Below, piece after piece: positions 460-62,732 of a stretch of 64,000 nt of DNA. The notes beneath the pieces are model-generated. The model was not told the DNA's origin. It worked only from the letters and a program-made list of their open reading frames with translations, and searched no databases. Every line of letters starts with the position of its first letter. Position 1 is the first letter of the stretch. Both the position numbers and the translations under genes were made by a program. This stretch comes from a virus (Duplodnaviria; Heunggongvirae; Uroviricota; Caudoviricetes): positions 1-64,000 of the IMG/VR virus record IMGVR_UViG_3300033069_001798; one strand, 5' to 3'.

Positions 460-471
460 TGAGGTGTCGCT

Positions 472-633
472 ATGAAAGTTGGTGACTTGGTTGTCCCACG
501 AAAAAATTATTTGCCAGAAGCGTGCATCATCATAGGGTTTGGTCAGCTCAAGTCAGGAGCGACTTGGGCTTGGGTCTTGCTGTTCAGCGGACGCGTCAAC
601 AGATACTACGTTGGTGCACTAGAGCTGCTATGA
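472..633 (+). CDS. GDLV-family small protein (array member 3)
   Basis: 53 aa, below the track cutoff, read by hand: MKVGDLVVPRKNYLPEACIIIGFG..WAWVLLFSGRVNRYY. GAGGTG lies 5 nt upstream of the ATG. ATGA overlap with the next gene. Confidence 0.65.
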   Translation: MKVGDLVVPRKNYLPEACIIIGFGQLKSGATWAWVLLFSGRVNRYYVGALELL

Positions 634-848
634 AGATCGGCGATCTGGTCTGCAGCGACTCGAGAGATCTGTACGTCCTCACGTTGAAAGCACCCTATGA
701 ATATGGTCTTCACGGCTTCGAAGTTCCCGGTTCTGGACCTTTCGTGTACGTTGGTATTAGCGGTCGTGGCAACGGAAGCTTGGTTCTTATCTTGCTTCCG
801 TCTGGTGTCTTGGTAGAAGTTCATCCATCAAGACTAAGGCCTTTGTAA
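630..848 (+). CDS. GDLV-family small protein (array member 4)
   Basis: In-frame ATG inside track ORF 522..848; MKIGDLVCSDS..FVYVGISG..LVLILLPSGVLVEV; ATGA coupling at 630-633. Confidence 0.7.
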   Translation: MKIGDLVCSDSRDLYVLTLKAPYEYGLHGFEVPGSGPFVYVGISGRGNGSLVLILLPSGVLVEVHPSRLRPL

Positions 849-876
849 CGCTGTGCACTGGTGCCACAAAATGGGT

Positions 877-882
877 TACAAT
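877..882 (+). promoter_or_regulatory. TACAAT (-10-like) element 6 nt upstream of ATG 889
   Basis: ggTTACAATtgttagATG lies in the 40-nt gap after member 4. The same hexamer recurs 3-9 nt before the first start codon of other + strand units (14776, 15872, 17812, 21853). Confidence 0.35.
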
Positions 883-888
883 TGTTAG

Positions 889-1137
889 ATGGCAGTGACA
901 CTTCCGGGTGACATGGTGATTCTACAATCGCATGGAAGTACGTACGTGACGACCATTTCACTGCATGAGGACGGCGCGCGGCTCGTGTATAAAGATTTCA
1001 AGCCCACAGATGAAGAATGCCGAGCAGCTGGCACTTTTCTTGGCACGGTCACGTGGGATGATTGTAACCTCGCTGTCGTATTGTTCCGCGGTGAGATCTG
1101 GGTCTCTTTCCCGCACCAGTTCAAGGTTGTCAAGTGA
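889..1137 (+). CDS. GDLV-family small protein (array member 5)
   Basis: 82 aa; MAVTLPGDMVILQ..LAVVLFRGEIWVSF; first gene after a 40-nt gap. Confidence 0.65.
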   Translation: MAVTLPGDMVILQSHGSTYVTTISLHEDGARLVYKDFKPTDEECRAAGTFLGTVTWDDCNLAVVLFRGEIWVSFPHQFKVVK

Positions 1138-1301
1138 GCGATTCATTTCGTAGCGGTGACTTGGTTAACTGGGGCGCCCAGCGCGTCGTGTACATCTACT
1201 TGTGTCGTTGTGATCCGGATTCTGCACTCGCTTACGTTATAGCACCGAATGGGCGGATTGATTGGTTCTACGTCTGTGATCTGAAGCACGCGGAGCAATG
1301 A
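1134..1301 (+). CDS. GDLV-family small protein (array member 6)
   Basis: 55 aa, hand-read, GTG start in a GTGA overlap: VSDSFRSGDLVNW..VVYIYLCR..AYVIAPNGRIDWFY. Confidence 0.6.
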   Translation: MSDSFRSGDLVNWGAQRVVYIYLCRCDPDSALAYVIAPNGRIDWFYVCDLKHAEQ

Positions 1302-1471
1302 TGAAATCCGGGGATCTGGTCTATTGGATCTACGATAACCACGTAATACCAAAGAGGTCAGTGTTGATCTACGTGGGCACGGACCATGTTCACCCTAGCA
1401 TTGCCTGCGTTGTCTGCTCGTCTGGGCAAGTTGCCTGGGCGTACGCAAGCGAGCTGAGAGAGCTGCTATGA
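1298..1471 (+). CDS. GDLV-family small protein (array member 7)
   Basis: 57 aa, hand-read: MMKSGDLVYW..VLIYVGTD..ACVVCSSGQVAWAY; ATGA overlaps at both ends. Confidence 0.65.
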   Translation: MMKSGDLVYWIYDNHVIPKRSVLIYVGTDHVHPSIACVVCSSGQVAWAYASELRELL

Positions 1472-1689
1472 TGCTGCCGGGAGATCTGCTTACCACGCGG
1501 CACACAACGATCATTGAAGCACCCATGATACCCATGGGATTTGAGAAATTTGCGTTCTTCAAAGTTAAACCCAACTTCATCTGCATGTGTGTAGGTTGCG
1601 AGACGATCGCCGGCGAGGATTACAAGTGGGTCCTGCTTCCGTCAGGGAAGTTGACACGCATCGTTGCAGCTGACTTGGTGCCCGCATGA
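1468..1689 (+). CDS. GDLV-family small protein (array member 8)
   Basis: 73 aa; MMLPGDLLTTR..FICMCVGC..KWVLLPSGKLTRIV. Confidence 0.7.
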   Translation: MMLPGDLLTTRHTTIIEAPMIPMGFEKFAFFKVKPNFICMCVGCETIAGEDYKWVLLPSGKLTRIVAADLVPA

Positions 1690-1865
1690 AAGAATCATTC
1701 AAGACTGGTGATCTGCTGCGATTTGAAAACCGATTGTCTCAGACTCGGAGCCCCATGGTGTGTATGGGAACGCTTGACAGCCTTCACGGCGACTGCCTGG
1801 TTCGCGTCATGTTTCCCAACGGACAGATTGCAGTGTACTACGCGAGCAACTTGAGGAAGCTATGA
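1686..1865 (+). CDS. GDLV-family small protein (array member 9)
   Basis: 59 aa, hand-read: MKESFKTGDLLRF..MVCMGTL..LVRVMFPNGQIAVYY; ATGA overlaps at both ends. Confidence 0.65.
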   Translation: MKESFKTGDLLRFENRLSQTRSPMVCMGTLDSLHGDCLVRVMFPNGQIAVYYASNLRKL

Positions 1866-2074
1866 AAACCGGTACTTTGGTGAAGATCAACAGAGACAAT
1901 GTCATCATATGCGAGCTTGATTCTGATCATCCAAAGATTCGCAACTTTGGCTCTAACGAGCGACTTGCTGTTTACTTGAACGACTATCGAGTGCATGGTG
2001 GTAATTACGCGTTGGTGATTCTTCCATCTGGTCACTTGATTTACGTGTACAACCACGACTTGAGTCTCCCGTGA
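1862..2074 (+). CDS. GDLV-family small protein (array member 10)
   Basis: 70 aa; MKTGTLVKIN..LAVYLND..YALVILPSGHLIYVY. Confidence 0.7.
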   Translation: MKTGTLVKINRDNVIICELDSDHPKIRNFGSNERLAVYLNDYRVHGGNYALVILPSGHLIYVYNHDLSLP

Positions 2075-2250
2075 AGAAGATTAAGATCGGCGATCTAGTT
2101 CAGGCGAAGATTGGATATCATCCTCATGACACCATCATGGTTTGCATCGGCCTTCGCGTTGGGGCTTGGGGTGATCTGATCGTTCGAGTGATGCTGCCAA
2201 ACGGCGGGGTGCTAACATACTACGCCTATGATATCATGGTGCTAGCATGA
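2071..2250 (+). CDS. GDLV-family small protein (array member 11)
   Basis: 59 aa, hand-read, GTG in a GTGA overlap: VKKIKIGDLVQAK..IMVCIGLR..IVRVMLPNGGVLTYY. Confidence 0.6.
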   Translation: MKKIKIGDLVQAKIGYHPHDTIMVCIGLRVGAWGDLIVRVMLPNGGVLTYYAYDIMVLA

Positions 2251-2414
2251 ATGATGTTTCCTTTGACGTCGGCGATCTGCTTATTTTTCTCGGCGATGCA
2301 GAGTCCTGGAAGGACCAAGCTGGTTCGCGATGGTACGGAATCGTCCTGCGGGCTAGAGACACAAAAGTGCTAGTGTTCCCTGATTACTGCTTTGAACCAT
2401 GTCACCCCAACTGA
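2247..2414 (+). CDS. GDLV-family small protein (array member 12)
   Basis: 55 aa, hand-read: MNDVSFDVGDLLIFLGD..WYGIVLRARDTKVLVF; ATGA upstream; 16-nt overlap with the next gene. Confidence 0.55.
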   Translation: MNDVSFDVGDLLIFLGDAESWKDQAGSRWYGIVLRARDTKVLVFPDYCFEPCHPN

Positions 2415-2635
2415 TACAACATCGCTGGACGCAGATCGGTTACCTCGTGGAATTTGAGCACGCTTACGAGATTCCAGCTCGCGACGTGTTCTGGCTTCCT
2501 GGTGATGTTGTCAGACCGGCGTGGGATGACTACGATCGCAAACTAAACGATTTTGCTCCGGAGCCAGCTGGCATCGTTATCAACTATGATCGAACGACAA
2601 AAGACATGCTGATCCTGTGGAGCGATGCACCGTGA
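2399..2635 (+). CDS. GDLV-family small protein (array member 13)
   Basis: 78-aa track ORF. The family motif WLPGDVVRPA is internal (res 33-41), so in-frame GTG 2486 is an alternative start. ..AGIVINYD..MLILWSD. Confidence 0.55.
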   Translation: MSPQLIQHRWTQIGYLVEFEHAYEIPARDVFWLPGDVVRPAWDDYDRKLNDFAPEPAGIVINYDRTTKDMLILWSDAP

Positions 2636-2862
2636 AGAGCGTGAAAAAGCTGAAGATAGGATCATTGTTGATCCCAACCTCTTCATTTCATTGGTTGTAC
2701 TCAACAAATCCGATTCACTCGCAGGTGATCACAGCTCACGGTCGACCACTGTACGTGTACCTCGGAAACATGGTTGACCGTGATGATGCTCCGGCTCTGT
2801 ACATTCTTACGCCAGATTGTGAAATCTACTTGACCGATGCTGAGAACGTTGAAGAGCTATGA
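2632..2862 (+). CDS. GDLV-family small protein (array member 14)
   Basis: GTG 2632 sits in a GTGA overlap; track start 2617 is also GTG in the same frame. VKSVKKLKIGSLLIPT..PLYVYLGN..ALYILTPDCEIYL. Confidence 0.6.
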   Translation: MKSVKKLKIGSLLIPTSSFHWLYSTNPIHSQVITAHGRPLYVYLGNMVDRDDAPALYILTPDCEIYLTDAENVEEL

Positions 2863-3107
2863 AATCAGGTGACCTTGTCGCATCGCGGTTCGCAGCAACA
2901 ACGTGCTTCGAAGTGCACCCTGAATTCGGTCTGCTGATCAGAACGATAGCTAGCGATGAAATTTGCACGTTCATCTGCAAGCTCTCCCGTGATGACCAAA
3001 GAAGGGTGCATCCATCGTTGGGCACGTACACCGCTGCGACGATGATGATCATGCGTGCTGATTGCAGCCTCGTGTACGTCGACAAAAGGATGCTATCAAA
3101 GCTATGA
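2859..3107 (+). CDS. GDLV-family small protein (array member 15, subtype A)
   Basis: 82 aa; MKSGDLVASR..CTFICKLS..MMIMRADCSLVYVD. Confidence 0.7.
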   Translation: MKSGDLVASRFAATTCFEVHPEFGLLIRTIASDEICTFICKLSRDDQRRVHPSLGTYTAATMMIMRADCSLVYVDKRMLSKL

Positions 3108-3352
3108 TCGATCTAGATGATCTACTTCTTGGAACGTTGCTTCGACCGAAAGCTGACGCTTCTGGATCTCGTCACTGGATTTATAAGTGGAACGTTTCTA
3201 AGACGTACGAAGCGTTTTATGAAGCACCAGGACCGGTGTATGCGTACATGGGCATGATTCCCGTTGAGGGTGAAACAACTGCTTATGCTTTGAGCTCTAA
3301 GGACGGTGCTTTGTACGAAATATGCACGAGAGAATTTGAGGTCATCCCGTGA
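3104..3352 (+). CDS. GDLV-family small protein (array member 16, subtype B)
   Basis: ATG 3104 in an ATGA overlap, inside track ORF 3062..3352; MIDLDDLLLGTLLRPK..VYAYMGMI..AYALSSKDGALYEI. Confidence 0.6.
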   Translation: MIDLDDLLLGTLLRPKADASGSRHWIYKWNVSKTYEAFYEAPGPVYAYMGMIPVEGETTAYALSSKDGALYEICTREFEVIP

Positions 3353-3594
3353 AGTCAGGCGATCTTGTGATACCAGGGCACGAAGCGATATACTGCTTCG
3401 CTGACAGAGAGCCGGCTGGTTACACGACGATCTTGTGGAAAGAAATTCTTATTTACGTCAGCGATCTTACACAAGATGACTGCGATTACGAGTACTTCTC
3501 GCGGTGGACGAAGTCACCAGAAAACATTGCACGCGTCATCAGAGAGTCTGGGAGGATTGTCTACATCGACAGAAGGGACGTTGTGACCCTATGA
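3349..3594 (+). CDS. GDLV-family small protein (array member 17, subtype A)
   Basis: 81 aa, GTG in a GTGA overlap; VKSGDLVIPG..ILIYVSDL..ARVIRESGRIVYID. Confidence 0.7.
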   Translation: MKSGDLVIPGHEAIYCFADREPAGYTTILWKEILIYVSDLTQDDCDYEYFSRWTKSPENIARVIRESGRIVYIDRRDVVTL

Positions 3595-3866
3595 AAGTGC
3601 GCGCGCCCACAGATTGCCATGGCACTAAAATCAGCTGCGGATCGATCGTAGTACCGTCTGACGCTGCAGTCAACATGCCGCCGTTGACACGGCACCTTAA
3701 GGGCTCTTGGGTCACATCATTCCGCTATGGAATACCAAACACCAAGAAAGAATTTCTTCTTTGCATTGGGCATGAAGCGTACATCGAAGGAGGCTCTGTG
3801 CTTCACCTCTTTTCACCAACGATAGGATTGATCAACTTGTACGCGCATGAGGTGGCGCTGTGTTGA
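3591..3866 (+). CDS. GDLV-family small protein (array member 18, subtype B)
   Basis: ATG 3591 in an ATGA overlap, inside track ORF 3504..3866; MKVRAPTDCHGTKISCGSIVVPS..FLLCIGHE..VLHLFSPTIGLINLY. Confidence 0.6.
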   Translation: MKVRAPTDCHGTKISCGSIVVPSDAAVNMPPLTRHLKGSWVTSFRYGIPNTKKEFLLCIGHEAYIEGGSVLHLFSPTIGLINLYAHEVALC

Positions 3867-4123
3867 CGGGCGACTTGCTGCAGCCGACAGATTACGTCAT
3901 ACCCTGCTTCTTTGGTGCTGGCGCTAATTGGAAGTTGCACCCAGAACAAGGCGTCATCCTAAACAGTCAGCTGCTAGTGTTCATCTGCAACGTTGGTGAC
4001 AAAGAAGAAGAGTTGATGCACTATTGGTTCAACAAGTCTTCGAAGTACATCCGAGTCATGAAATCGTCTGGTGAACTGTGCACCGTCGACGCAAGGAACG
4101 TAGCGAAACTTTTACACCTATGA
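3860..4123 (+). CDS. GDLV-family small protein (array member 19, subtype A)
   Basis: 87 aa, GTG start; VLTGDLLQPT..LLVFICNV..IRVMKSSGELCTVD. Confidence 0.65.
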   Translation: MLTGDLLQPTDYVIPCFFGAGANWKLHPEQGVILNSQLLVFICNVGDKEEELMHYWFNKSSKYIRVMKSSGELCTVDARNVAKLLHL

Positions 4124-4135
4124 AGTAGGCCTACT

Positions 4136-4402
4136 GTGATAAAACCTGGAACGTTGCTCAAGGCTAGCAAGAGATGCTGGACGCTGTACTACGGCGAACG
4201 AGGCACGCCGCAGTGGGCATCCTACGACCATGATATTGAGAAGGGTGAATACCTCATCTTCATCTCAGAGATTCCCATATCGCCGGAGTTGGCGCCGTTG
4301 ATCGGCCTCAAGAGCACGTACCTGCTGCTCCGGGCTCGAGGGTGCTCTCTAGTTTATTTGGGGGTATTGAGATGGAAACCATCGGATGATTTGTGCGATT
4401 AA
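4136..4402 (+). CDS. GDLV-family small protein (array member 20, subtype B)
   Basis: 88 aa, GTG start after a 12-nt gap; VIKPGTLLKAS..YLIFISEI..TYLLLRARGCSLVYL. Confidence 0.6.
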   Translation: MIKPGTLLKASKRCWTLYYGERGTPQWASYDHDIEKGEYLIFISEIPISPELAPLIGLKSTYLLLRARGCSLVYLGVLRWKPSDDLCD

Positions 4403-4409
4403 ATCGTGA

Positions 4410-4439
4410 GGCCCACGAGCGCTGTGCACAGCTCGGGCC
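4410..4439 (+). promoter_or_regulatory. Imperfect inverted repeat in the largest intra-array gap
   Basis: GGCCCacgagcGCTGTG/CACAGCtcGGGCC: a perfect 12-bp palindrome GCTGTGCACAGC (4421-4432) flanked by GGCCC/GGGCC arms. No U-tract follows. Function unknown. Confidence 0.3.
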
Positions 4440-4462
4440 CAGAGTGGTAAGATGTTAAGAGG

Positions 4463-4702
4463 ATGCGTCATCTTCCTGGCATGCTTGTTAAACCGCACAG
4501 CGAAGCTCGTGGCCTTAAATTGCTGGATGATTGTTGGTGTCGTCAGTGGAACGATTCATCTATGCTGGTGGATGAATCTGAGTTTCTAGCCGTCGTTTCC
4601 TCGTACGACATGAGTCGTCGAAACATCGTGATGTGCCTGAGGCGCGACATGTCGCTCGTCTTCCTTGACGATTGGGACGTTAACGAGGTGACTTGTGGTT
4701 AA
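4463..4702 (+). CDS. GDLV-family small protein (array member 21)
   Basis: 79 aa; MRHLPGMLVKPH..FLAVVSSY..IVMCLRRDMSLVFL; follows the 60-nt gap. Confidence 0.65.
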   Translation: MRHLPGMLVKPHSEARGLKLLDDCWCRQWNDSSMLVDESEFLAVVSSYDMSRRNIVMCLRRDMSLVFLDDWDVNEVTCG

Positions 4703-4943
4703 CGCTTCATGCATCGGCGCGCTCGTGACAATCATCAACACTGCGCATGATTATCCATTTCTTAAGCGAGCAGGATTTGGGGGACTTGATGGTCCTCGAG
4801 CACGGGTCAGAGACGTATTCATGATCATTGGATACGAACAAGTGACAATTTCTGACGGTGGAAAGCGTGGACGTTGTTGGTTGCTGAGAACCAGAGATCA
4901 GCACGTCGGTGAATTGTGGATCGATGAGGTCGTTGCGCTATGA
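4695..4943 (+). CDS. GDLV-family small protein (array member 22, degenerate N-motif)
   Basis: 82 aa, GTG start; VVNASCIGALVTII..VFMIIGYE..RCWLLRTRDQHVGELWI. Confidence 0.55.
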   Translation: MVNASCIGALVTIINTAHDYPFLKRAGFGGLDGPRARVRDVFMIIGYEQVTISDGGKRGRCWLLRTRDQHVGELWIDEVVAL

Positions 4944-5184
4944 GCAATTTCGCGCCTGGTGATATCGTCAGGTTGAAGAGGAGCATGGACGGTGCCTCGT
5001 TCCTCGTCGTTGAAAATGGCGCCGTGCTGCCTTCGTGGAGCTCACGAGTGACGTCGCTCAAAGACATCTACTTTGTCATCGGTGTGAAGGAGATGAATTT
5101 GGCACAAAGCACATCGTGTATGTCATGTGCTCTGGTGATGCGCACGTGGGCATGATGTGGGAAGGCGAGCTTCAAGGGGCATGA
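4940..5184 (+). pseudogene. GDLV-family member 23, apparently frameshifted
   Basis: The N-half MSNFAPGDIVRLK..DIYFVIGVKE is in the 4940 frame, which stops at 5155 after a non-family tail. The family-like C-half DEFGTKHIVYVMCSGDAHVGMMWEGELQGA is in the -1 frame from ~5092. Its TGA (5182-5184) makes the usual ATGA overlap with the next gene. Confidence 0.5.
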
Positions 5185-5444
5185 AAACGGGTGACCTGCT
5201 GCGACCAAAGGCTTCCATGATCGGACAAAACTACTTGACGCTGTCGGGCGACGGGCTTGAAGTGTCTAACGATCGCAAGATCCAAGGATCAGATCGATTC
5301 TTGCTGATTGGTTACGCACCAGAAACGGCGGACTACAACAGGATTATCTGCGTCATGATAGTTGACACTGGAAACCTTGGCCTCTTGTTCGACGCCGACG
5401 TCGATGCATGGGTGTTAGCATGTTCAACACTGGATCCTTGTTGA
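5181..5444 (+). CDS. GDLV-family small protein (array member 24)
   Basis: ATG 5181 inside track ORF 5157..5444; MKTGDLLRPK..RFLLIGYA..IICVMIVDTGNLGLLF. Confidence 0.65.
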   Translation: MKTGDLLRPKASMIGQNYLTLSGDGLEVSNDRKIQGSDRFLLIGYAPETADYNRIICVMIVDTGNLGLLFDADVDAWVLACSTLDPC

Positions 5445-5647
5445 AGCCAAAATCTACTGCGGGAGCTCATCACTACTTGACCCATCGCTCTGTCCGGACA
5501 ACCAGGCGCGTTAGAGCTCGAGATCGCTACGTGCTCTTGGGTTACGTAACAGTTGGGAAGTCTTCTGATCCGATCTACTTGTGCGCTCTGCTGCACGTTT
5601 CGGGAGCAGTGCTCTACATCAATGTGGAGAAAGTTGAGCTGGCATGA
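5420..5647 (+). CDS. GDLV-family small protein (array member 25)
   Basis: ATG 5420 (track start 5408 is in the same frame); MFNTGSLLKPK..RYVLLGYV..IYLCALLHVSGAVLYI. Confidence 0.6.
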   Translation: MFNTGSLLKPKSTAGAHHYLTHRSVRTTRRVRARDRYVLLGYVTVGKSSDPIYLCALLHVSGAVLYINVEKVELA

Positions 5648-5916
5648 AGATTGGATCTTACGTCCGAGCAGTCGAAGACTCTTGGGGTTACGCTTACATG
5701 AAACCTGACGAGAGATATCCCGGTGACTGGCGAGGAAATCACAAGATGGTAACAGTATCTAGCAACCATCGTTACTTGATCGTAGGAGCTCTAGAATCTG
5801 GTCTTGTTGATGACAACAAGGTGTACGTGCTGTTGATGATCCCCCAGTGCATCATCACTTACCTTACTTCAAAAGAAGTCGTAGAAGTGTTATGTTCAGG
5901 ATTGGTGATCTGGTGA
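5644..5916 (+). CDS. GDLV-family small protein (array member 26)
   Basis: 90 aa; MKIGSYVRAV..RYLIVGAL..VYVLLMIPQCIITYL; 25-nt overlap with the next gene. Confidence 0.65.
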   Translation: MKIGSYVRAVEDSWGYAYMKPDERYPGDWRGNHKMVTVSSNHRYLIVGALESGLVDDNKVYVLLMIPQCIITYLTSKEVVEVLCSGLVIW

Positions 5917-6134
5917 CGCCAAGAAGAGATGCTCTAGGCAGAGCGTTTATCAATCCCGATGGATCTACAGCAACCCCCGAAAACTGGGATTACACTAAGC
6001 GCGGAGACTTGTACGTTTACATCGGGCAGATGACGATCGTTCACGGTGGAATGTACAAGAATATTTCCACATTGTGGAGCATCGAAGATCTTAAAATTGT
6101 TCACCTGTACGAGAACGAGCTCCAGCATGTTTAA
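5892..6134 (+). CDS. GDLV-family small protein (array member 27)
   Basis: ATG 5892 inside track ORF 5847..6134; MFRIGDLVTPR..LYVYIGQM..STLWSIEDLKIVHLY. Confidence 0.65.
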   Translation: MFRIGDLVTPRRDALGRAFINPDGSTATPENWDYTKRGDLYVYIGQMTIVHGGMYKNISTLWSIEDLKIVHLYENELQHV

Positions 6135-6369
6135 CATTGGCGATCTTGTGAAGCTAGCACCGACGCTTAGCAAGCGTTACTACATCTTGGAGTCGTCATT
6201 GGGCGCCAAGCACGCGATCTACGATTCAAAGTCAAGCCCCGCTGAGCACGATGAAATGTACGTAGTAGTTGGCTTTAAGATTAGTTACGATTGGAACGCT
6301 TGCGCTCTCATGCGCGTAAACGATGGTAAAGTTGTCTGGCTGCACAAAAGCGAGGTGACGCATGTATGA
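6127..6369 (+). CDS. GDLV-family small protein (array member 28)
   Basis: ATG 6127 inside track ORF 6046..6369; MFNIGDLVKLA..MYVVVGFK..ACALMRVNDGKVVWL. Confidence 0.65.
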   Translation: MFNIGDLVKLAPTLSKRYYILESSLGAKHAIYDSKSSPAEHDEMYVVVGFKISYDWNACALMRVNDGKVVWLHKSEVTHV

Positions 6370-6592
6370 TAGTGGTGACATTTGCATACCCACCAAAACA
6401 GGGCTTGGGAATGTTAACTACTTGTCTGCTCGCAACGTAGTAACCGGTCGAAAAGCTGCCTACAGTGATATTCTTCTGTTCGTTTGTTGGCATCCTGAAG
6501 GTTCTTCCTACAGTGATCGACGCATAGCAAAGTTCATTCTCCCAGATGGATCAATCGTGATGCTTTATGATGGAGAGTTTCATAAGATATGA
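6362..6592 (+). CDS. GDLV-family small protein (array member 29, 'GEF' subfamily)
   Basis: 76 aa; MYDSGDICIPT..ILLFVCWH..AKFILPDGSIVMLYDGEFHKI. Confidence 0.7.
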   Translation: MYDSGDICIPTKTGLGNVNYLSARNVVTGRKAAYSDILLFVCWHPEGSSYSDRRIAKFILPDGSIVMLYDGEFHKI

Positions 6593-6822
6593 GCATAAAA
6601 GTTGGTGATCTATGCTCTCCGATTGGAAACGGTGCAGTAAGCTACATCGATCCGGTTGGAAATTTTCCAACTAATGTTTGGGCGCAAAAGAACGACGTGC
6701 TGTTGTTCATCGGCTGGGTTAACATTGTCACCCTCTCTACGCAAAGTACGTCGATGGCTGTATTTGTGCTGCCTGATGGAACGATAGCATCGCTGTACAA
6801 CAGAGAATTTAAGTTGCTATGA
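6589..6822 (+). CDS. GDLV-family small protein (array member 30, 'GEF' subfamily)
   Basis: 77 aa; MSIKVGDLCSPI..VLLFIGWV..AVFVLPDGTIASLYNREFKLL. Confidence 0.7.
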   Translation: MSIKVGDLCSPIGNGAVSYIDPVGNFPTNVWAQKNDVLLFIGWVNIVTLSTQSTSMAVFVLPDGTIASLYNREFKLL

Positions 6823-7115
6823 CGATCAAAGTCGGTGATCTGTGCACCCCCTCGGGAGACGTCATCCAGTTCAGGTACATGAACATCACGCCTCGCGAAA
6901 ACGGAACGAACGTTTGGACTGTCAACATGAATCTTCCGCGGGTTAACCCAAACGTCACGTTCTTGTGCATCGGATTCTTGCAGGCGGCGGCGCGCTTCCA
7001 GCAGTCGCGGAGGATTGACGTTTCAACTATGGAGATGTCCACAATTGCTATTTTGCTGCACGCACAGCTCAAAACTGTCACATTTCTCCTTGCTGAAGAG
7101 ATCGAGGCGCTGTGA
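6819..7115 (+). CDS. GDLV-family small protein (array member 31)
   Basis: 98 aa; MTIKVGDLCTPS..VTFLCIGF..IAILLHAQLKTVTFLLAEEIEAL. Confidence 0.65.
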   Translation: MTIKVGDLCTPSGDVIQFRYMNITPRENGTNVWTVNMNLPRVNPNVTFLCIGFLQAAARFQQSRRIDVSTMEMSTIAILLHAQLKTVTFLLAEEIEAL

Positions 7116-7336
7116 CGGATGGCATCCGAGCCGGTGCTCTTTGCTCACCAACACCAGAGCTTGAAGGTGAAATTTACTGCAACGCTCATTTTGCTATGCA
7201 CAAGCGCATCGCCATATTCCGTCATCACAAGCTAGTGTTCTTGTACAGCGCTGATCGAGAATACCCAAGGCTGTGCTACTTCATCTTGGGTGATCAGATC
7301 GTTGGACTGATCGAGGGTGAGTTCAAAGAACTATGA
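7112..7336 (+). CDS. GDLV-family small protein (array member 32, 'GEF' subfamily)
   Basis: 74 aa, GTG in a GTGA overlap; VTDGIRAGALCSPT..KLVFLYSA..CYFILGDQIVGLIEGEFKEL. Confidence 0.65.
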   Translation: MTDGIRAGALCSPTPELEGEIYCNAHFAMHKRIAIFRHHKLVFLYSADREYPRLCYFILGDQIVGLIEGEFKEL

Positions 7337-7587
7337 TGAACCATTCAAGCGTCAAAATTCTGTCTGGTGATCTCTGCCGCCCAACGAGAGCATGTGCCAA
7401 CAGCAATTTGCAGTACATCAACTTTGCTAGCGCAACGGCATCTGAACGTGTTGTCAAGAGAGATGACGTTCTTGTGTTCATCTGCTGGACAGCATGGCGC
7501 GTGAACGAGCCAGCAAATTACGCTCAGTTCATCACCTCCGACGGAGAAATACTGTCGCTGAGAGCTGGGGAGTTCGAGGTTGTATGA
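7333..7587 (+). CDS. GDLV-family small protein (array member 33, 'GEF' subfamily)
   Basis: 84 aa; MMNHSSVKILSGDLCRPT..VLVFICWT..AQFITSDGEILSLRAGEFEVV. Confidence 0.7.
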   Translation: MMNHSSVKILSGDLCRPTRACANSNLQYINFASATASERVVKRDDVLVFICWTAWRVNEPANYAQFITSDGEILSLRAGEFEVV

Positions 7588-31643: not shown

Positions 31644-32318
31644 TCATCTGCCGTACTTCTTGTCAAAGTACGTGTTACCAAGTTGGTACAGAACATTTTC
31701 TAGCGATGATTGCTTCACGTCGTGCTTTGCCAGCTGCTGAGCAACTTCACCATGCCTTTGGATCAAGCTTGATTTTGCCGCGCTTTGTCCTGGCCCGTCG
31801 TAAGAGTAGTTCAATACCTTGTTTGGATCTTTCACAAGCTCGCAGTCATCGCATTCTTCTGGTGTCTTTGGATCATCACGATCATCAAACGGTTTCTTGT
31901 CAACGTCGCTGCGCTTCGAAGAGTAATATTGCCACAACTTCTCGGCAGAAGAATTTGTCGATACCCTGTCTGGCATCAAGCCACCGTCGCCGTCGCTCAT
32001 GACAATATCGTACATGAGCGGACCGTAACCTTTAGACGCTGCAGATCGATGAACTTCGATAGCGTCATTGCACTCGTCAGAGTGTGGGATGGCTTCGATG
32101 AAACCGTAGATAAATTCATCGAGAGGTTTGGAGAATCGCATGCTCCAGAAACCCGGTTCTTGCATGACAGACGCTAGAGTCTTGGGCTCGTAAAGAACGT
32201 AGTAAATCTTACCTTCTCGCTGTCCCCTATAAAGAGCTAGCCCAGCATCTATAGCTTGATCTCCGCCCACTGCTGCTTCAATGAGGTGTGATATGTACGA
32301 CTTCAAGTGTTGCTTCAT
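31644..32318 (-). CDS. Hypothetical protein (224 aa) with weak leader-type N-terminus
   Basis: MKQHLKSYISHLIEAAVGG... Confidence 0.5.
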   Translation of the reverse strand: MKQHLKSYISHLIEAAVGGDQAIDAGLALYRGQREGKIYYVLYEPKTLASVMQEPGFWSMRFSKPLDEFIYGFIEAIPHSDECNDAIEVHRSAASKGYGPLMYDIVMSDGDGGLMPDRVSTNSSAEKLWQYYSSKRSDVDKKPFDDRDDPKTPEECDDCELVKDPNKVLNYSYDGPGQSAAKSSLIQRHGEVAQQLAKHDVKQSSLENVLYQLGNTYFDKKYGR

Positions 32319-32824
32319 AGGATTCCCACCCTCTTGAACAGCTTTCGATTGTAGTCGCTGAAAGATCCTTGCAGGAGAACAGCGGGTTCAACCCACTTCA
32401 CCACACCAGATTCATCAGTGTCAACGTTACCCATGACTGAGCAAGAGTAAGTCGTCACGAAGTAACCAGCATCATCTTTCTGCGAGAACACTTTTGTTAG
32501 ATTTACAGCAGTGTAACCAGTCTCTTCTTCAAGCTCTCTTGCAGCGGCTTCAACCTCAACCTCACCAGGATCCACTTTCCCACCCGGCAATCCAAAATCG
32601 TTTGGATCATCTTTCCTAGAGACTGCCAAGATCTTTCCGTTTGGGTTCCTAACAAGAACGCATGCAGCTCGCGGGGCATTCAAAGCTGCGAGCGTCTCGT
32701 CTTCTTCGTCATTTGCCAACGAACCACCCACTTCGACGTTTGTTATCGGCGGTCGAGGATCTGTCAACATCTCACGGATGAGCTGCTTCAGAAGCTTAAC
32801 TTCTTTGGTTCTGGAAGTGGACAT
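32315..32824 (-). CDS. Nudix hydrolase with leader-type N-terminal extension
   Basis: Nudix box GLPGGKVDPGEVEVEAAARELEEETG. N-terminus from ATG 32824 is MSTSRTKEVKLLKQLIREMLTD. Confidence 0.8.
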   Translation of the reverse strand: MSTSRTKEVKLLKQLIREMLTDPRPPITNVEVGGSLANDEEDETLAALNAPRAACVLVRNPNGKILAVSRKDDPNDFGLPGGKVDPGEVEVEAAARELEEETGYTAVNLTKVFSQKDDAGYFVTTYSCSVMGNVDTDESGVVKWVEPAVLLQGSFSDYNRKLFKRVGIL

Positions 32825-33169: not shown

Positions 33170-33493
33170 TCAAATTTCTCTCAAGTACCCAAACTTAGCA
33201 TTGATGAGCCCAACAAGCGCTGAATCTGTTTCCTTGAAATCATTGTTGTGCTTGCGGAATAGCTTCGCGTACTTTGAAGATGCATAATCGATGATCTCAC
33301 GTCTGATATTATCAGGCAGAGGTTCATCATTGATCTCTTCTGTCTTTCTGATCCAGAAAACGGCAGCAGTGCGACCATTTGATGCTAGCGACGGCGCCAT
33401 GTGCCTCTTTAGCCGGGCGATGAACTTTGTGTCAAGCTTGAGCTCAGCAATGATAGTTGAGACGTACTCTTTCAGCAGCTGTTGATCGCTCAT
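33170..33493 (-). CDS. Hypothetical protein with leader-type N-terminus
   Basis: ATG 33493 in an ATGA overlap; MSDQQLLKEYVSTIIAELKLD... Confidence 0.5.
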   Translation of the reverse strand: MSDQQLLKEYVSTIIAELKLDTKFIARLKRHMAPSLASNGRTAAVFWIRKTEEINDEPLPDNIRREIIDYASSKYAKLFRKHNNDFKETDSALVGLINAKFGYLREI

Positions 33494-34296
33494 GTACCCT
33501 CCAAAAACGGTACCCAAAAGCTGTTTGCAGAGCTTTCGTCTAGGTACTTAAACGGCACCCAAGCGTAACCATCATCTCCCCACCAAGTTCCCCAAGAGTT
33601 GCGAACCAACCACAGCTCTCTTCCAAGATCGTAGCCTACGATCACTTGGCAGTGACCTCCAGCGCCGGCCCTAACGGACTTTGGCATCGCAACGGGTGGA
33701 CCGCCGCGGTACGCCATGTAATCTTTATCGACAGTCATGCCAAAGACGATCGGATGGCTTGCTTGCAGCGCAGAGATGATGTAGTTTTTCTGCGCTTGAC
33801 CAGATCCACCGATAGAATAGTAGCTGTCAATTTTGTTGACGTAAGCGTCCCTGTAAGAACCCCAAGACGGTCGAATGAAGACCTTGCTGGTGTCATAAGG
33901 CCACTTTTCTTCTGCACAAGTTCCCAACGATGACAGCGTTCCGAACGCCATGTGAATGTAAGCACCCTCATCGCGATCTTGCATTCGTGACATCAAACGA
34001 GCATTGTAGTAGACGAACATCCTAGACAGGTCTACGAAAGGTTTGCCGTTGCGGATCTGAAGAAACTCGAGAGCCCCAACGACACCGTTGCCCGTACAAC
34101 TTCCTATAGCTCCCTGATCCTCGACCGGTGAGCACCACTGGCGCAGATCTAGGACGCCGTCGACCTCTTGCGGAGCGCTAGCTGGTGATGCAGCTGCGAA
34201 CTTAGAGATATTATCCGCAAAGACGTAGTTCTTGCTTGCGTCATGATCTGGATCTTCGTGGTCGGCTTTCCAGCCGCCTAGCTTTGGTACGTACAT
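33490..34296 (-). CDS. Papain-like (C1 family) cysteine peptidase
   Basis: QGAIGSCTGNG (Gln/Cys), GGHCQVIVGYD (His), LVRNSWGTWWGDDGY (Asn-Ser-Trp). Confidence 0.85.
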   Translation of the reverse strand: MYVPKLGGWKADHEDPDHDASKNYVFADNISKFAAASPASAPQEVDGVLDLRQWCSPVEDQGAIGSCTGNGVVGALEFLQIRNGKPFVDLSRMFVYYNARLMSRMQDRDEGAYIHMAFGTLSSLGTCAEEKWPYDTSKVFIRPSWGSYRDAYVNKIDSYYSIGGSGQAQKNYIISALQASHPIVFGMTVDKDYMAYRGGPPVAMPKSVRAGAGGHCQVIVGYDLGRELWLVRNSWGTWWGDDGYAWVPFKYLDESSANSFWVPFLEGT

Positions 34297-35647: not shown

Positions 35648-36841
35648 TCAGAATTCGCCGCGAGTTCCGTGCTTCGCGTAGTAATCAGCTTCGTGCCGAG
35701 CAGAAGACTTCTTGTGCTTCGACCAAGACTTGATCTCTTCTGGCGTTGGCTTCACTGCGTCTGCAAACATGTAGTCAGCGCGTTGAGCTCGGCCGTCAGT
35801 TGTCCGGCACGTGACGTAGCTACCACCAGTCGACGGCGTATCTTCAAACGAAGCGATCTGAACGACAGCACCGCCTGGCAACTTCACCCAGTCACCGACG
35901 TTCCAGCCATCAAATGATGTCATTCCCTCGGTGAGAATCGTTCTGATCATCGACTTAAGCTCGCGAAGCTTGATCTTCATAACGAGTAAGTATTCACCCC
36001 AAAGGTGATCAAACGTCGCAGTGAACTTTCCCCAAGCTTCATCTTTCAGAAGCGACTTAAAGCCGTACTTCTCGAACGTAGAGCGGACTGGCGCCCAATC
36101 TTTGGTCGGTTGCGAAGACGTCATGCCATGCGCCTCTTCGTCAGACCACGTGGTGAACTTGATGAGCGAATAGTTCTTTCGAAAGGCTTCTTTATTAGCA
36201 GGATCATTGAAGAACTCCTTCAACGCATCCGGGTCGTCCATCAGCGCCGTAGCAGCACCATCCGTAATGATCTTTGGGATGTTGTCTGTTGGATCTCCAC
36301 GAAGAGCCTTCCATGTAACGTAATCAGCGGGAGCTTGCTCAACGTAAGCCTTCTTCATGGGGTTGTAGATGCTGACGCCCTCAAATTCATCTAGGAGCTG
36401 CGTGAAGTCAGAATCGTTCGATACAACTGTCCACTTCACGGCTCGTGTGCCACGCTTGATGAGGTTGTAGATTGTGTCATCGCACTCGTGGTGAGGATGA
36501 CGCACGACAGAGAACGGAAAAGAACCAGCCAGCAACCCGACTATCTCGTCGACCTGGCTGAAGAACTTCACCATCTCATCGTGCTCTTTGGTGCCGGCTT
36601 CTACGATGCGGTTCGCTTTGTATTGCGGCAAGATATCGTGACGAGCTTGCGGATGGCCTTCAAGCACGAAATACAAGCGACTGATATCAAGTTTTTCTAC
36701 TAGTGCTCGTATGTTACGAAAAAAATTAAAAACTACAGGAGCTGGACCAGCTGTCCAGCCAGTTCTAGACCGGTGCAAAAAATTCATCCCATCTACTAGA
36801 CAAATATGAGGACGCATAATTCTATTGTTACGTGCTTCCAT
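35648..36841 (-). CDS. 5'-3' exonuclease / flap endonuclease (RNase H-like) with a 110-aa C-terminal extension
   Basis: The N-terminal PIN-like region has CLVDGMNFLHR and HECDD. Residues 288-397 (35648..35980) begin MKIKLRELKSMIRTILTEG (leader motif), followed by a GDLV-type module NVGDWVKLPGGAVVQIASF..YVTCRTTDGRAQR. The first ~51 codons are AT-rich (cassette-derived). Confidence 0.8.
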   Translation of the reverse strand: MEARNNRIMRPHICLVDGMNFLHRSRTGWTAGPAPVVFNFFRNIRALVEKLDISRLYFVLEGHPQARHDILPQYKANRIVEAGTKEHDEMVKFFSQVDEIVGLLAGSFPFSVVRHPHHECDDTIYNLIKRGTRAVKWTVVSNDSDFTQLLDEFEGVSIYNPMKKAYVEQAPADYVTWKALRGDPTDNIPKIITDGAATALMDDPDALKEFFNDPANKEAFRKNYSLIKFTTWSDEEAHGMTSSQPTKDWAPVRSTFEKYGFKSLLKDEAWGKFTATFDHLWGEYLLVMKIKLRELKSMIRTILTEGMTSFDGWNVGDWVKLPGGAVVQIASFEDTPSTGGSYVTCRTTDGRAQRADYMFADAVKPTPEEIKSWSKHKKSSARHEADYYAKHGTRGEF

Positions 36842-37479
36842 TGCTTGTTAAGCTTAATCCGATTTACTTGAGAACGACTAATATTGAACAGTTTCACAAT
36901 GTCACAAACTCTAGTTCCAATTGACAATTGATACTTGATTCCCTTAACATCATCTTCAGTCAATGAACAATTTGGATTTTTCACTCCAATCCGTAGTTTA
37001 GCATGCTCACTAATTTTTTTACGTGCTTGATCAGTAAGATGTGTTCCGAAATTTGGATTTCTAGCGCCACGCAAACCTTCCCAACCAAGTCTTGCACGAG
37101 AAATTGCCTGGCGATGTTCTAGTGACTTAGGTTTTCCGCGGTGTTTATCACTCATTTTCTGACGAGTTTCTATCGAAACAACGCAACCCGTAGATCCTTC
37201 TCCTCCACGCGTCAGATTATAACCTCTATCGATGTTAAACGAATCATAATGTGATATCCAATAAATTTCACGATCATCACACTCATGATCATCACACTCT
37301 TCTAGAATTCGAAACTCGAAATTTTCATGACCATATTTTCGGATGGAACAGTAAAGAGGTCGAAGATCACCTTTCTTGGCAGAATACAAATGTCCTGCTT
37401 TTCTATTGGAAAAATTTTTCGTTTGCCCAACATATACTTTCCCGTTGATTAGATTCTGAATCAGATAAACATATCTCAT
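36689..37479 (-). mobile_element. AT-rich homing-endonuclease cassette 2 (GIY-YIG ORF plus recoded FEN codons 1-51)
   Basis: ~35% GC by hand count at 37261-37320, against GC-normal flanks. It is bounded upstream by a native-composition duplicate of the FEN 5' end (37480..37668). Confidence 0.65.
36796..37479 (-). CDS. GIY-YIG homing endonuclease (I-TevI/Seg-like) with NUMOD3 repeats and C-terminal HTH
   Basis: MRYVYLIQNLINGKVYVGQT..R..H..E..YNLTRGGEGS; SIETRQKMS / SLEHRQAIS / TDQARKKIS; ..VCDIVKLFNISRSQVNRIK. Confidence 0.85.
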   Translation of the reverse strand: MRYVYLIQNLINGKVYVGQTKNFSNRKAGHLYSAKKGDLRPLYCSIRKYGHENFEFRILEECDDHECDDREIYWISHYDSFNIDRGYNLTRGGEGSTGCVVSIETRQKMSDKHRGKPKSLEHRQAISRARLGWEGLRGARNPNFGTHLTDQARKKISEHAKLRIGVKNPNCSLTEDDVKGIKYQLSIGTRVCDIVKLFNISRSQVNRIKLNKQWKHVTIELCVLIFV

Positions 37480-37668
37480 TCAATTAAGTATATCGAACCG
37501 TGTTGGAGGGGCAAAGAATAGCGTCTCCACGAGAGACCTGATGTTCCTCATGAAGTTGAAGACGACGGGCGCAGGACCGCCTGTCCATCCACTTCGGGCT
37601 CGATGCAGAAAATTCATGCCGTCGCACAGAACCACGTGAGGTTGTAGCATCTTCTTAGATTGTACCAT
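37480..37668 (-). pseudogene. Orphaned native 5' fragment of the FEN gene
   Basis: MLQPHVVLCDGMNFLHRARSGWTGGPAPVVFNFMRNIRSLVETL matches IMRPHICLVDGMNFLHRSRTGWTAGPAPVVFNFFRNIRALVEKL of the full gene. It then diverges and stops (TGA) immediately before the HEG ATG. Confidence 0.75.
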
Positions 37669-60454: not shown

Positions 60455-60752
60455 GATCTTTTCCTTGTAAGCTCAGCTCGTAATTCTTTTCAAGTTCTTC
60501 TGCATCAATCAGGAATTTTTCACCCTCTGGCGTCCTGAGTATGCAATCGTTAGGACCGACTGAATCCACTGTGTAGCGAATTCCACTGTTCTTGTGAAGA
60601 ACTTTCAGCTCTGGAGCGATGATCATCTTCTCTTCTCCTTTGCCGATCTTTGCAGTCATCGCAACGTCGACGGTCTCCGTTAGAGACGCAACACGTGAGT
60701 CCCACTCTTCACGGAAGACTTCTATGATGTCCTTATCAGTAAGTGCTCTCAT
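60417..60752 (-). CDS. Hypothetical protein (111 aa)
   Basis: ORF. Its ATG overlaps the stop of the native deaminase remnant (ATGA). Confidence 0.5.
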   Translation of the reverse strand: MRALTDKDIIEVFREEWDSRVASLTETVDVAMTAKIGKGEEKMIIAPELKVLHKNSGIRYTVDSVGPNDCILRTPEGEKFLIDAEELEKNYELSLQGKDHEQKEHTGRSRP

Positions 60753-60889
60753 GTTCTCGATGTAAGTATTGCGTCCGATGTTCTCATGACTTCAATACCA
60801 ACTGATTGCAGCAAGACAAGACCTGACGAATCCCTGTACTGGATGTCATACACGACCCTAGAGATTCCAGCGTTGATGATCATCTTGAT
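60749..60889 (-). pseudogene. Orphaned native 3' fragment of the dCMP deaminase gene
   Basis: Hand-translated from 'intergenic' DNA: IKMIINAGISRVVYDIQYRDSSGLVLLQSVGIEVMRTSDAILTSRT*. It aligns with AKSLINSRVGRIVYLQKYRNSTGVKLLREAGIQV of the upstream AT-rich copy. GC-normal composition. Its TGA makes an ATGA overlap with gene 60417..60752. Confidence 0.7.
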
Positions 60890-62166
60890 TCATTTGAGAA
60901 ATCTACTAGATCCTGATAAGAATCAACTTGAATTCCAGCTTCACGAAGCAATTTTACACCAGTTGAATTTCTGTACTTTTGCAAGTACACGATTCTTCCA
61001 ACTCGACTGTTAATTAGACTTTTTGCACACATTATGCATGGAGATGTAGTTACGTAAACTGTGGAATTTTCAAGAGATTCAGATGCGTGAGAAATGGCAT
61101 TAATTTCTGCATGAATGCAACCACAAGAACCTGGTGTTAGGGAATCACAGCCATTAAGCCCTCCAGAATTTGATCCATTGTAGCCCAGGCATAGAACGCG
61201 TTCATTATGTTGATCAACAAAAACTGCGCCAACTCGCAATCTGCAACATGTTGATCTTTTTGCAAATGCAACTGCAACATGCATCCAAATAGAATCATAT
61301 GACGATCTACTGAATGTGCCTATGTCATTTTCATAGTATTCATGAATTTTTTCAATAGGTTCAAGATCGCGTTCATAAATCACGCGAAATTCAATGTTCT
61401 TGTTGGAATAAAAAGATCTAGCGGCTTCGATCTTTTTATTCGTATGTTCATTAACGTAGCCCTTAATCTCTTCAACGACCACGATATTAGAGTCATAATT
61501 GATGAAGAGATCAGGATTGTAATAGTGTGCATTACCTTCTTCATCAGACCAAAGAATTTTATCTTTACATCTACCCCATGCTAGAACTGTATTGTCAAAA
61601 TCCAGTTCTTTGAATCTTCGTAGCTCATAGCTAGAATCGTAATGAACTGTTCCAGCCTTTGTTGACTTGTATCTTCCTTTAAGAAAGTTCTTGTTAAAAT
61701 TTTCTGGTTCGTAAGATCTTTTGTAACAATCACGAGAACAATAACGATCATAATGATGTTTCAGATTGCTTTTCACAAAGTTTGAACAATCTTTTCCACT
61801 GCATTGCACTACAATTTTATTTTGTGAATGAAATGCTAGATAACATTCTCTATCACAAAAACAATTTGCATGCGCAACAATTGTTGAACGATAACGAAAA
61901 TTTGTTTTGTTACACCAAGAGCAATTTACTTGAACATGCGTTATAGATTTTTGTTCAGCTTTGTTGTGCAAAGCGCTACATTTTCTTGAACAAAACTTTC
62001 TTCCATTGTCAGCATAACACTTCAAAACATTGAATGCAGAATTACATTGAACGCATTTAATGGTGACTCGTTTGCTTTTCTGGAAGCATGTTTTTGAACA
62101 GTAATCATTTTTTGACTTTTTTTTGCCATGACAAATAGGACACAAATCTATTTCAGATTGAATCAT
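60880..62166 (-). CDS. Fusion ORF: Zn-ribbon repeats plus PD-(D/E)xK nuclease-like (homing-endonuclease-like) N-part and dCMP deaminase C-part
   Basis: ATG 62166 in an ATGA overlap with the tdk stop. Four CxxC..(F/Y)CSxxC ribbons. YDSSYELRRFKELD..YYNPDLFINY..VVVEEIKG (TnsA-like PD-ExK). C-terminus AKRSTC..GYNG..CIHAEINAI..SPCIMCAK (the CDA zinc motif). The whole ORF is AT-rich (~33% GC by hand count at 61341-61400). Confidence 0.75.
   Translation of the reverse strand: MIQSEIDLCPICHGKKKSKNDYCSKTCFQKSKRVTIKCVQCNSAFNVLKCYADNGRKFCSRKCSALHNKAEQKSITHVQVNCSWCNKTNFRYRSTIVAHANCFCDRECYLAFHSQNKIVVQCSGKDCSNFVKSNLKHHYDRYCSRDCYKRSYEPENFNKNFLKGRYKSTKAGTVHYDSSYELRRFKELDFDNTVLAWGRCKDKILWSDEEGNAHYYNPDLFINYDSNIVVVEEIKGYVNEHTNKKIEAARSFYSNKNIEFRVIYERDLEPIEKIHEYYENDIGTFSRSSYDSIWMHVAVAFAKRSTCCRLRVGAVFVDQHNERVLCLGYNGSNSGGLNGCDSLTPGSCGCIHAEINAISHASESLENSTVYVTTSPCIMCAKSLINSRVGRIVYLQKYRNSTGVKLLREAGIQVDSYQDLVDFSNESR
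60880..62166 (-). mobile_element. AT-rich cassette 3 (nuclease-like module plus replacement dCMP deaminase)
   Basis: The composition break falls exactly at both ORF ends. A native deaminase 3' remnant lies directly downstream. Confidence 0.6.
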
Positions 62167-62732
62167 GTTAGCACTATGAAAGGATGACATCGCAAGCAAC
62201 GCGGCTCGTATAGCTCGTGCCCGCCAACTTCAAGCAACGTTTCATCTTCGCTCTTCTTGTACGTAAAATGAGCATCTTGCGAGCAGATCGTGCACACTGC
62301 TGAGCACTTCTCTATTGACGTTGCCCAAGGCAGCATCTTTGTCACTTCATCGAACGGCTTACCATTGAATGCAGTGTCAAGCGTTGACACTATGATGTTG
62401 TAGCCGTTCCTGTACAAGAACGTCAAAGCATCAGCAACGCCGTTAATCATGAAAGCTTCATCTACTGCGATGATGCTAATGTCGTTGTTCTGCTCTTCAA
62501 GAACTTTCGCAAGAATACCTTCTGCGTTATTGACAGTGACTGCATCGTGACGCCAACCACCGTGCGTCACGATCTGAGACGTAGAGTAGCGATCATCTAT
62601 CGCAGGCTTGAAAACTAGAGCGTTTCTCTTCTGGTACTTGCAACGCTCAAGCTCCATCAACAATCGAGATGATTTTGATGACCACATGGGTCCGACGTAC
62701 ATCACGAATGTTGGATTAGCTTGCTTGCTCAT
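62163..62732 (-). CDS. tdk: Thymidine kinase
   Basis: P-loop GPMWSSKSS and a C-terminal Cys cluster (CSAVCTIC..CLRC). Confidence 0.85.
   Translation of the reverse strand: MSKQANPTFVMYVGPMWSSKSSRLLMELERCKYQKRNALVFKPAIDDRYSTSQIVTHGGWRHDAVTVNNAEGILAKVLEEQNNDISIIAVDEAFMINGVADALTFLYRNGYNIIVSTLDTAFNGKPFDEVTKMLPWATSIEKCSAVCTICSQDAHFTYKKSEDETLLEVGGHELYEPRCLRCHPFIVLT

Follow-up and report, generated by a model that had tools for sequence, protein, structure and literature searches.

The exonuclease gene considered here lies on a 64,000-nucleotide stretch of viral DNA (Caudoviricetes; positions 1 to 64,000 of the IMG/VR record IMGVR_UViG_3300033069_001798), which as a whole is termed the window. A 5'-3' exonuclease of the FEN type is encoded there by an open reading frame (ORF; 35648..36841, minus strand) of 397 codons that runs open throughout, past the point where related FEN genes end. 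By sequence comparison, the final 110 residues (288-397) are no outgrowth of the exonuclease itself; they are homologous, from end to end, to a family of small proteins that are free-standing genes in related phages. A gene-fusion origin for the ORF is strongly supported by these comparisons. The explanation favored here, with reasonable rather than high confidence, is that a complete small gene was captured on the FEN stop codon, and that two protein products are the likely outcome. The event is one of gene capture that gave a known enzyme a new domain architecture, and is not the appearance of a new kind of repair enzyme.

The exonuclease part is readily recognized. Residues 13-164 match the Pfam family 5_3_exonuc_N (PF02739; E 1.1e-16, 61.4 bits with a cut-off of 34.3), and PHROG 107, an exonuclease family, covers residues 8-268 (1.2e-22). 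The match of the ORF to PF01367 (the H3TH or SAM-fold segment) is weak, at 17.4 bits for a cut-off of 40 (E 0.0065), and the GIPGIG loop carries a two-residue deletion, so that it reads KI--ITDG, as it does in the homolog P0006. The invariant acidic metal-binding columns of the homolog alignment (A1) are E61, E119, D121, D122, D143, D145, D183 and D186. A search of 5.8 billion proteins gave 436 homologs of the 397-residue ORF, and those compared here are the five with the extension (P0001 to P0005, one of which, P0002, sits on a JGI contig of 313,755 bp) and 115 listed homologs outside this clade. The five are 86-100% identical to the window ORF. None of the 115 has the extension; they show at most 65% identity and 70% query coverage, and are 254-328 residues long with the exception of P0081 at 679. 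Among isolated phages no near-identical or related genome was found by megablast, and tblastn of the FEN gave no more than 30% identity.

In alignment A1 the FEN-only homologs terminate in ..LWG, ..LWGE or ..LWGEG, which is residue 282 or 283 of the query, and the window FEN is therefore complete at residue 283. The preliminary description of this DNA had proposed about 287 residues of exonuclease followed by a stop-free add-on, and this is borne out with a slightly earlier boundary. The FEN proper (residues 1-283; 35993..36841, minus strand), as delimited by Pfam, PHROG and A1, ends in the conserved ..FDHLWGE; it is followed by a linker, YLLV, at residues 284-287, and by residue 288, the Met encoded by an internal ATG at 35980. 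In P0081, from a 277 kb contig, an AAA ATPase is fused to the FEN N-terminus, and both P0081 and P0008 have short, seemingly random read-through tails beyond ..LWG. The gene boundaries of FEN seem fluid in this phage group. Judged from these two sequences, tails at the FEN C-terminus are tolerated and are not harmful in themselves.

Neither Pfam nor PHROGs matched the last 110 residues. When these residues were used in a phmmer search of 1.84 billion representatives, one real relative was found outside the clade: P0121, a 109-residue protein that aligns from its residue 1 (E 2.9e-9). A second candidate, P0122 (1962 residues), was set aside as spurious, being a eukaryotic Ig-repeat protein with nine weak repeat matches. 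Profile searches added P0123 to P0130, all free-standing and 107-120 residues long, except that P0128 is called at 166. The nine standalone members (P0121 and P0123 to P0130) are 30-47% identical proteins. A hidden Markov model (HMM) of these nine, built with the window sequence left out, matched FEN residues 290-392 along HMM positions 1-101 (E 2.7e-19), and found nothing further in the 64-kb window. Their common plan, in an alignment (A5) that includes the window copy, is a leader of the form MKIKLxxLRxxIREALxE, a short variable linker, a strand f-K-V-GDW-V, a beta region, ATPEE, a helix, and the C-terminus ..MAKNIDTSREGT. Nine of the ten rows of A5 start with MKI, and the standalone homologs begin exactly at the leader Met. 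By ORF call the window copy is not an independent gene, its leader Met being codon 288 of the 397.

The add-on follows this plan along its length (all coordinates on the minus strand). The leader, MKIKLRELKSMIRTILTE (residues 288-305; 35927..35980), starts at the internal ATG and is a predicted amphipathic helix, as indicated by a leader HMM, AlphaFold2 and the hydrophobic moment. The linker from leader to barrel, GMTSFDGWN (35900..35926), lies where A5 varies in both length and sequence. Add-on residues 28-72 (35765..35899) form the predicted Tudor/SH3-like beta-barrel, with VGDWVKL as its first strand and a TTDG turn. The C-terminal helix and tail, ..KPTPEEIKSW..YAKHGTRGEF and the stop (35648..35764), keep the conserved TPEE but not the family's terminal motif. 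The AlphaFold2 model, for which a three-sequence alignment was the input, places helices at add-on residues 5-18 and, with lower confidence, 80-104; the barrel has five strands and is predicted with confidence (pLDDT ~85 for residues 21-80). A fold search of BFVD returned no match with E below 0.005.

The fused copy has lost a near-invariant feature of the family. The C-terminal IDTSREGT is identical in eight of the nine standalone members and is NTSREGT in P0130, while the window protein ends ..AKHGTRGEF, with GTRGEF in place of the family motif both in A5 and in a comparison of the 3'-end DNA. A simple frameshift as the cause was considered, and is not supported by the DNA comparison. The octapeptide before the stop, in ..NIDTSREGT, is more conserved than the rest of the family proteins (L008 294-623, L009 2422-2769, L013 6001-6333 and L015 6001-6348), and it was sought on the other proteins of the window without any being found. 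A free-standing family defined by the leader, the Tudor-like barrel, the TPEE helix and the terminal IDTSREGT provides a handle that reaches beyond this locus.

How the small gene came to lie on FEN is best seen in a 309 kb relative (L001). There the FEN ends in ..LWGEG and a stop codon, and is followed by a homolog of the window's 154-residue gene, a lysozyme, a C1 peptidase and, further along, a NUDIX gene. This is the flanking order of the window without the add-on gene, so that it was in the window clade that the add-on was inserted. Standalone members lie elsewhere, and none adjoins a FEN: that of L009 is at the end of a mini-gene array, that of L013 lies among Fe-S and NifU genes, and those of L015 and L016 are in a block with GroEL, IF-1 and small genes. 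The proposed event is that a whole small gene was inserted at the FEN stop codon, and replaced it, in one recent clade. The captured gene would have comprised a start-proximal -10-like motif, the ATG, the 18-residue amphipathic leader helix, the Tudor/SH3-like barrel and the C-terminal helix. An earlier suggestion that a small gene had been fused in frame to FEN together with its leader is thus supported, both by the free-standing homologs that start at the leader Met and by the relative without the add-on. The locus offers a clean, datable example of domain gain in jumbo-phage genes: a small gene equipped with its own start signal settles on a stop codon, and what was its upstream motif now encodes a peptide linker.

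That motif is legible in the junction DNA, GGT GAA TAC TTA CTC GTT ATG. The sequence ATACTTA (35987..35993), followed by CTCGTT, lies 13 nucleotides before the ATG at 35980 on the minus strand and is read in frame as (E)-Y-L-L-V (35981..35993). It is an instance of the strongest signal found ahead of gene starts in the window, where ACTTA and ATACT show the highest enrichment of all 5-mers, at about 6-fold. Apart from the junction, seven of the 12 ATA[CT]TTA sites on both strands are located 12-17 nucleotides before a real start (binomial P ~5e-13); the starts concerned are 35108, 37479, 44840, 47902, 50642 and 60752 on the minus strand and 48673 on the plus strand. The positions of the motif, in the form nATAyTTAA(g), are 35121, 35993, 37491, 44854, 47915, 50656 and 60769 (minus) and 48660 (plus). 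The same kind of motif stands before standalone homologs, as GATACTTAAGATCA-ATG in L008 (277-285), AATACTTAAAAT-ATG in L009 (2411-2419) and GATAGTTAAAAGA-ATG in L013 (upstream of 6001). In the standalone family ATA[CG]TTAA is spaced 11-13 nucleotides from the ATG, and the window copy, ATACTTAC, fits at 13. The homologs in L015 and L016 are instead translationally coupled. Since the junction motif matches the upstream motif of the standalone homologs, YLLV and the final base of the codon for E283 represent the small gene's upstream signal read in the FEN frame.

A consensus scan at the start of a neighboring homing-endonuclease gene picks out the motif as a -10-like hexamer, TATACT. The resemblance of nATAyT to a -10 hexamer, and a spacing that would have transcription begin on the ATG or right beside it, suggest that the mRNAs are leaderless. 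The start-proximal motif nATAyTTAA, with a spacing suggestive of leaderless transcripts in this phage group, is a second handle that extends past the present locus. A GGTGA is present 13 nucleotides upstream of the ATG at 35980. No Shine-Dalgarno sequence is found in 70 of the 114 window genes, and its absence at this ATG is therefore uninformative. The motif and the ATG have been kept at their canonical spacing, so that the ATG at 35980 still looks like a gene start. The fusion has a predicted mass of 45.3 kDa, and a protein begun at this ATG one of 12.3 kDa.

On the capture reading, translation begun at the FEN ATG would always yield the 45.3 kDa fusion, and the motif and internal ATG that were kept would very probably remain the source of a separate 12.3 kDa product. 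The free 12.3 kDa protein would probably be the main functional form of the module, with the FEN C-terminus merely tolerating its tail. Separate expression from the internal ATG, which the preliminary description had raised as one of two options, is plausible from the motif at its canonical distance, and its product is a predicted one. Several points weigh against this view. The motif may be a relic that has yet to decay, as the fused variants are nearly identical here (synonymous divergence, pS, of 0.06 or less). The eighth base of the motif is C in ATACTTAC and A in the three motif-bearing standalone loci; this base also varies at other window sites, being G before 35108 and C before 60752. 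A second, free copy of the family may exist elsewhere in the genome of about 313 kb, of which the scan covered the 64-kb window. Finally, the frame is open in all five variants, including those with diverged, recombinant FENs, and a selected fusion would look alike.

A selected, functional fusion is the likeliest of the rival explanations, although it is itself regarded as rather unlikely. It would make the barrel, the leader or both an adaptor that recruits FEN to the replisome, to RNA polymerase or to a leader-dependent assembly, with the 45 kDa form as the relevant one. C-terminal tails that bind partner proteins are common in FEN-type nucleases. Retention of the open frame in every variant, recombinant FEN alleles included, would be expected of such a protein. 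Neighboring parts of FEN form a mosaic in which pS reaches 0.7-0.8 (about 0.7 for residues 161-283 of L004); the junction is kept and therefore survives recombination. Synonymous change in the add-on exceeds non-synonymous change: among the fused variants pN is 0.004-0.011 and pS 0.03-0.06, values from few changes that look compatible with purifying selection but are weak evidence of it. Set against this are the restriction of the fusion to one near-identical clade and its absence from the 115 listed FEN homologs outside it, the otherwise free-standing and never FEN-adjacent state of the family, the loss of the family's C-terminal motif in the fused copy, and the presence at the junction of a Met and a start motif for which a pure fusion has no need. 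The clade restriction, the loci of the standalone members and the lost IDTSREGT likewise speak against reading the fusion as a functional link of the recurrent modules to DNA repair, and such a link is not borne out.

The window also has arrays of mini-genes with a G-D-x-V layout (35..12018 and elsewhere), the GDLV family, to which the add-on's second part had been assigned. The layout itself is there, as VGDWVKL on the first strand of the predicted barrel, but membership fails in the profile comparisons. With an HMM built from 33 window members the add-on scores -0.6 bits, as against 10-20 bits for held-out family members, and hhalign of two add-on alignments with the mini-genes joined just 14-16 columns around the GD motif, at probabilities of 11% and 5.6%. 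The predicted structure of residues 288-397, which the preliminary description had asked for, shows the leader helix, an SH3/Tudor-like barrel and the C-terminal helix, and the barrel is of the fold class seen in array members. Mini-genes likewise have an SH3/Tudor/KOW-like barrel with a GD-hydrophobic first strand and a glycine turn before the last long strand; they differ in being leaderless, 55-100 residues long and in tandem, whereas the add-on has a leader and a TPEE or C-terminal helix, and sits outside the array. As far as sequence and model go, what the two have in common is their fold class and the motif on the first strand, and family membership is not supported.

It is nevertheless conceivable that the barrel is a true but very divergent GDLV member that acquired a leader, which was the earlier version of events. 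The common first-strand motif f-K-V-GD-W/L-V-k and the standalone homolog in L009 that closes a mini-gene array can be cited for it. This origin is considered improbable in light of the HMM and hhalign results, the fact that few small folds are as common as the SH3-like barrel, and the absence from mini-genes of the TPEE and IDTSREGT of the add-on family.

The leader has relatives within the window itself. At least 11 unrelated window proteins have an N-terminal amphipathic leader (..L[KR]xLIRE.L.E), with starts at 20198 on the plus strand and at 32318, 32824, 33493, 44840, 46826, 47902, 50642, 53030, 57352 and 59741 on the minus strand. When an HMM of 11 of these other leaders was scanned against all six frames, FEN residues 290-307 were its best match outside the training set. 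The isolated leader 19-mer scores 15.7 bits, which none of 3000 shuffles reached, and the recognition of this segment as the genome's recurrent leader was thus correct. The same HMM picks up the standalone homologs of L008, L009 and L013 at their N-termini. The hydrophobic moment of the leader, 0.66, is in the top 1.7% of 19-mers in the window. All other leaders in the window are N-terminal, and that of the FEN fusion is the only internal one. A known domain was recognized in just one of the leader-bearing proteins scanned, a NUDIX hydrolase (32315..32824), and the region of the leader genes is one of repair and metabolism, with UvdE, Fpg/Nei, ADP-ribosylglycohydrolase, dCMP deaminase and SOD also encoded there. 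Speculatively, the leader is most likely a portable helix for self-association or docking, shared with no fewer than 11 further proteins that the genome encodes; the fusion would then incidentally pull some FEN into the same assembly.

A role in capsid targeting has also been weighed for the leader. It would be a T4-type capsid-targeting sequence or propeptide, cut by the prohead protease after (L/I)-x-E (here between ILTE and G), such that the free miniprotein would be packaged in heads and the internal leader would be a cleavage or targeting site within the fusion. The concept is documented for T4 (PMC3012670), as is the sequence MKTYQEFIAE (10.1101/2021.01.19.427310, PMC8442874). The leaders are N-terminal, begin with MK and finish with [LIV]-x-E, and a Gp23-family product (PF07068) is encoded on related contigs with a standalone member, L015 and L016. 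MKTYQEFIAE, however, reaches 0.7 bits with the leader HMM, a score that 189 of 2000 and 230 of 3000 shuffles match; acidic amphipathic helices are expected to contain [LIV]-x-E by chance; within the family E18 varies; a gp21-type prohead protease is not present in the 64-kb window; and leader genes lie in a region of DNA repair and metabolism, one of them encoding the NUDIX hydrolase. This role is accordingly given little credence.

An artefact, in which an error of sequencing or assembly masks the FEN stop codon, is hardly credible: no point was found in its support, and the same open junction, ..LWGEYLL[VA]MKIKL.., is present in independent assemblies from different samples in Logan (P0001, P0003 and P0004), JGI (P0002 and P0005) and IMG/VR (locus L012), and is therefore not an assembly error. 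L012 was the only near-identical locus found in a scan of IMG/VR; a scan of JGI metagenomes confirmed nothing.

Several other loci are of note. Immediately at the 5' end of the FEN ORF is a homing-endonuclease cassette of the GIY-YIG and NUMOD3 type (region 36681..37668, minus strand), where 839 bp (37519..36681) replace 9 bp of L006. The cassette brings its own divergent FEN codons 1-54 (pS 0.83 relative to L006), and what remains of the resident FEN 5' end is a 62-residue stub (37480..37668). In L004 and L006 an RNA ligase gene is followed directly by FEN without the endonuclease, and L004 is a chimera of two FEN 5' types. The papain-like C1 peptidase gene of L006 (6543..8525) carries an intein (660 residues in all, PF14890), and the window copy (33490..34296, minus strand; 268 residues) is intein-free. 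In the region 60749..62190 (minus strand), a dCMP deaminase ORF of 436 residues is Cys-rich at its N-terminus, and a TnsA-like endonuclease domain precedes its deaminase domain; just downstream a 44-residue ORF (60749..60883) resembles a C-terminal piece of the deaminase. This locus may be another mobile-element insertion. About 220 nucleotides are common to an IF-1-like ORF (20788..21297, minus strand; 169 residues, with an eIF-1a domain at residues 24-87) and the leader-bearing ORF that converges on it (20198..21013, plus strand), and for one of them the true gene is probably shorter than the ORF.

Directly after the mini-gene array is a homolog of the major vault protein (12043..14775, plus strand; 910 residues) with MVP_shoulder (2e-30), Vault repeats and SPFH. 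Its only relatives in the phage collection are from 'huge phage' records of 462-735 kb (LR756500 to LR756503). A search of the literature for the leader peptide strings and for phage vault proteins found no paper on them, and there is no mention of vault proteins or of chaperonins in the 'moraphage' paper.

Compared with known phage FENs (PF02739 / PF01367, the type of T4 RNase H and T5 FEN), the window protein has the same N-terminal PIN-like nuclease domain and conserved acidic residues and, as in the 115 listed homologs outside its clade, a core of about 280 residues that ends in ..LWG. It departs from them in its 114 extra C-terminal residues, with an independent module of leader, barrel and helix, and in its weak H3TH segment and shortened GIPGIG loop. 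With the standalone family, which belongs to related uncultivated jumbo phages, the add-on shares the leader, the GDW first strand, the barrel, the TPEE helix and the upstream ATAyTTAA motif; it differs in being fused to FEN, in its genomic locus, and in ending ..HGTRGEF where the family has ..NIDTSREGT.

For the leader two systems invite comparison. The T4 capsid-targeting sequence is also a short N-terminal tag on unrelated proteins that ends in (L/I)-x-E (PMC3012670; 10.1101/2021.01.19.427310), but the phage leader is about twice as long and gives no significant sequence match. Encapsulation peptides of bacterial microcompartments are defined as amphipathic helices of 15-20 residues, with a poorly conserved linker to unrelated cargo (PMC4594438), and are reported to be capable of self-association into bundles and condensates (PMC12339742). 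The leader agrees with the formal definition of such a peptide, which is resemblance and not membership. Like the PduD, PduP and EutC tags it is an N-terminal amphipathic helix of about 18 residues with a variable linker and unrelated cargo, and LKSMIRTILTE of the add-on can be set beside LETLIRTILSE of PduP. With tag sequences from Salmonella (PMC5405515), that of PduD, MEINEKLLRQIIEDVLRDMK, aligned to the leader HMM over its full length and scored 9.3 bits (as good as 15 of 3000 shuffles), and that of PduP, MNTSELETLIRTILSEQL, scored 5.3 bits (79 of 3000). In sequence the leader thus resembles the microcompartment tags more closely than it does the T4 tag. In the FEN fusion, unlike those tags, the helix is internal, and the likeness may be a convergence of short amphipathic helices. 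Shell proteins (PF00936 / PF03319) were not seen among the roughly 30 of about 120 window ORFs that were scanned against Pfam, a sample too small to be a test of their absence.

A portable amphipathic leader on many unrelated proteins thus has the microcompartment encapsulation peptide as its closest formal analogue. That the leader is a phage counterpart of these peptides, which would gather a dozen or more unrelated proteins (the NUDIX hydrolase, proteins without assigned function, the Tudor-like miniprotein and, via the fusion, FEN) into one phage-built assembly, is an analogy to be entertained as a long shot. Were it true, the assembly might be a condensate or a shell, in a genome that also encodes the major vault protein homolog (12043..14775), and the FEN fusion would be a natural experiment in which an enzyme has been tagged for a compartment. 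If the leader is a tag for localization or co-assembly, the two predicted products of the fused gene would differ only in whether the tag is internal or N-terminal.

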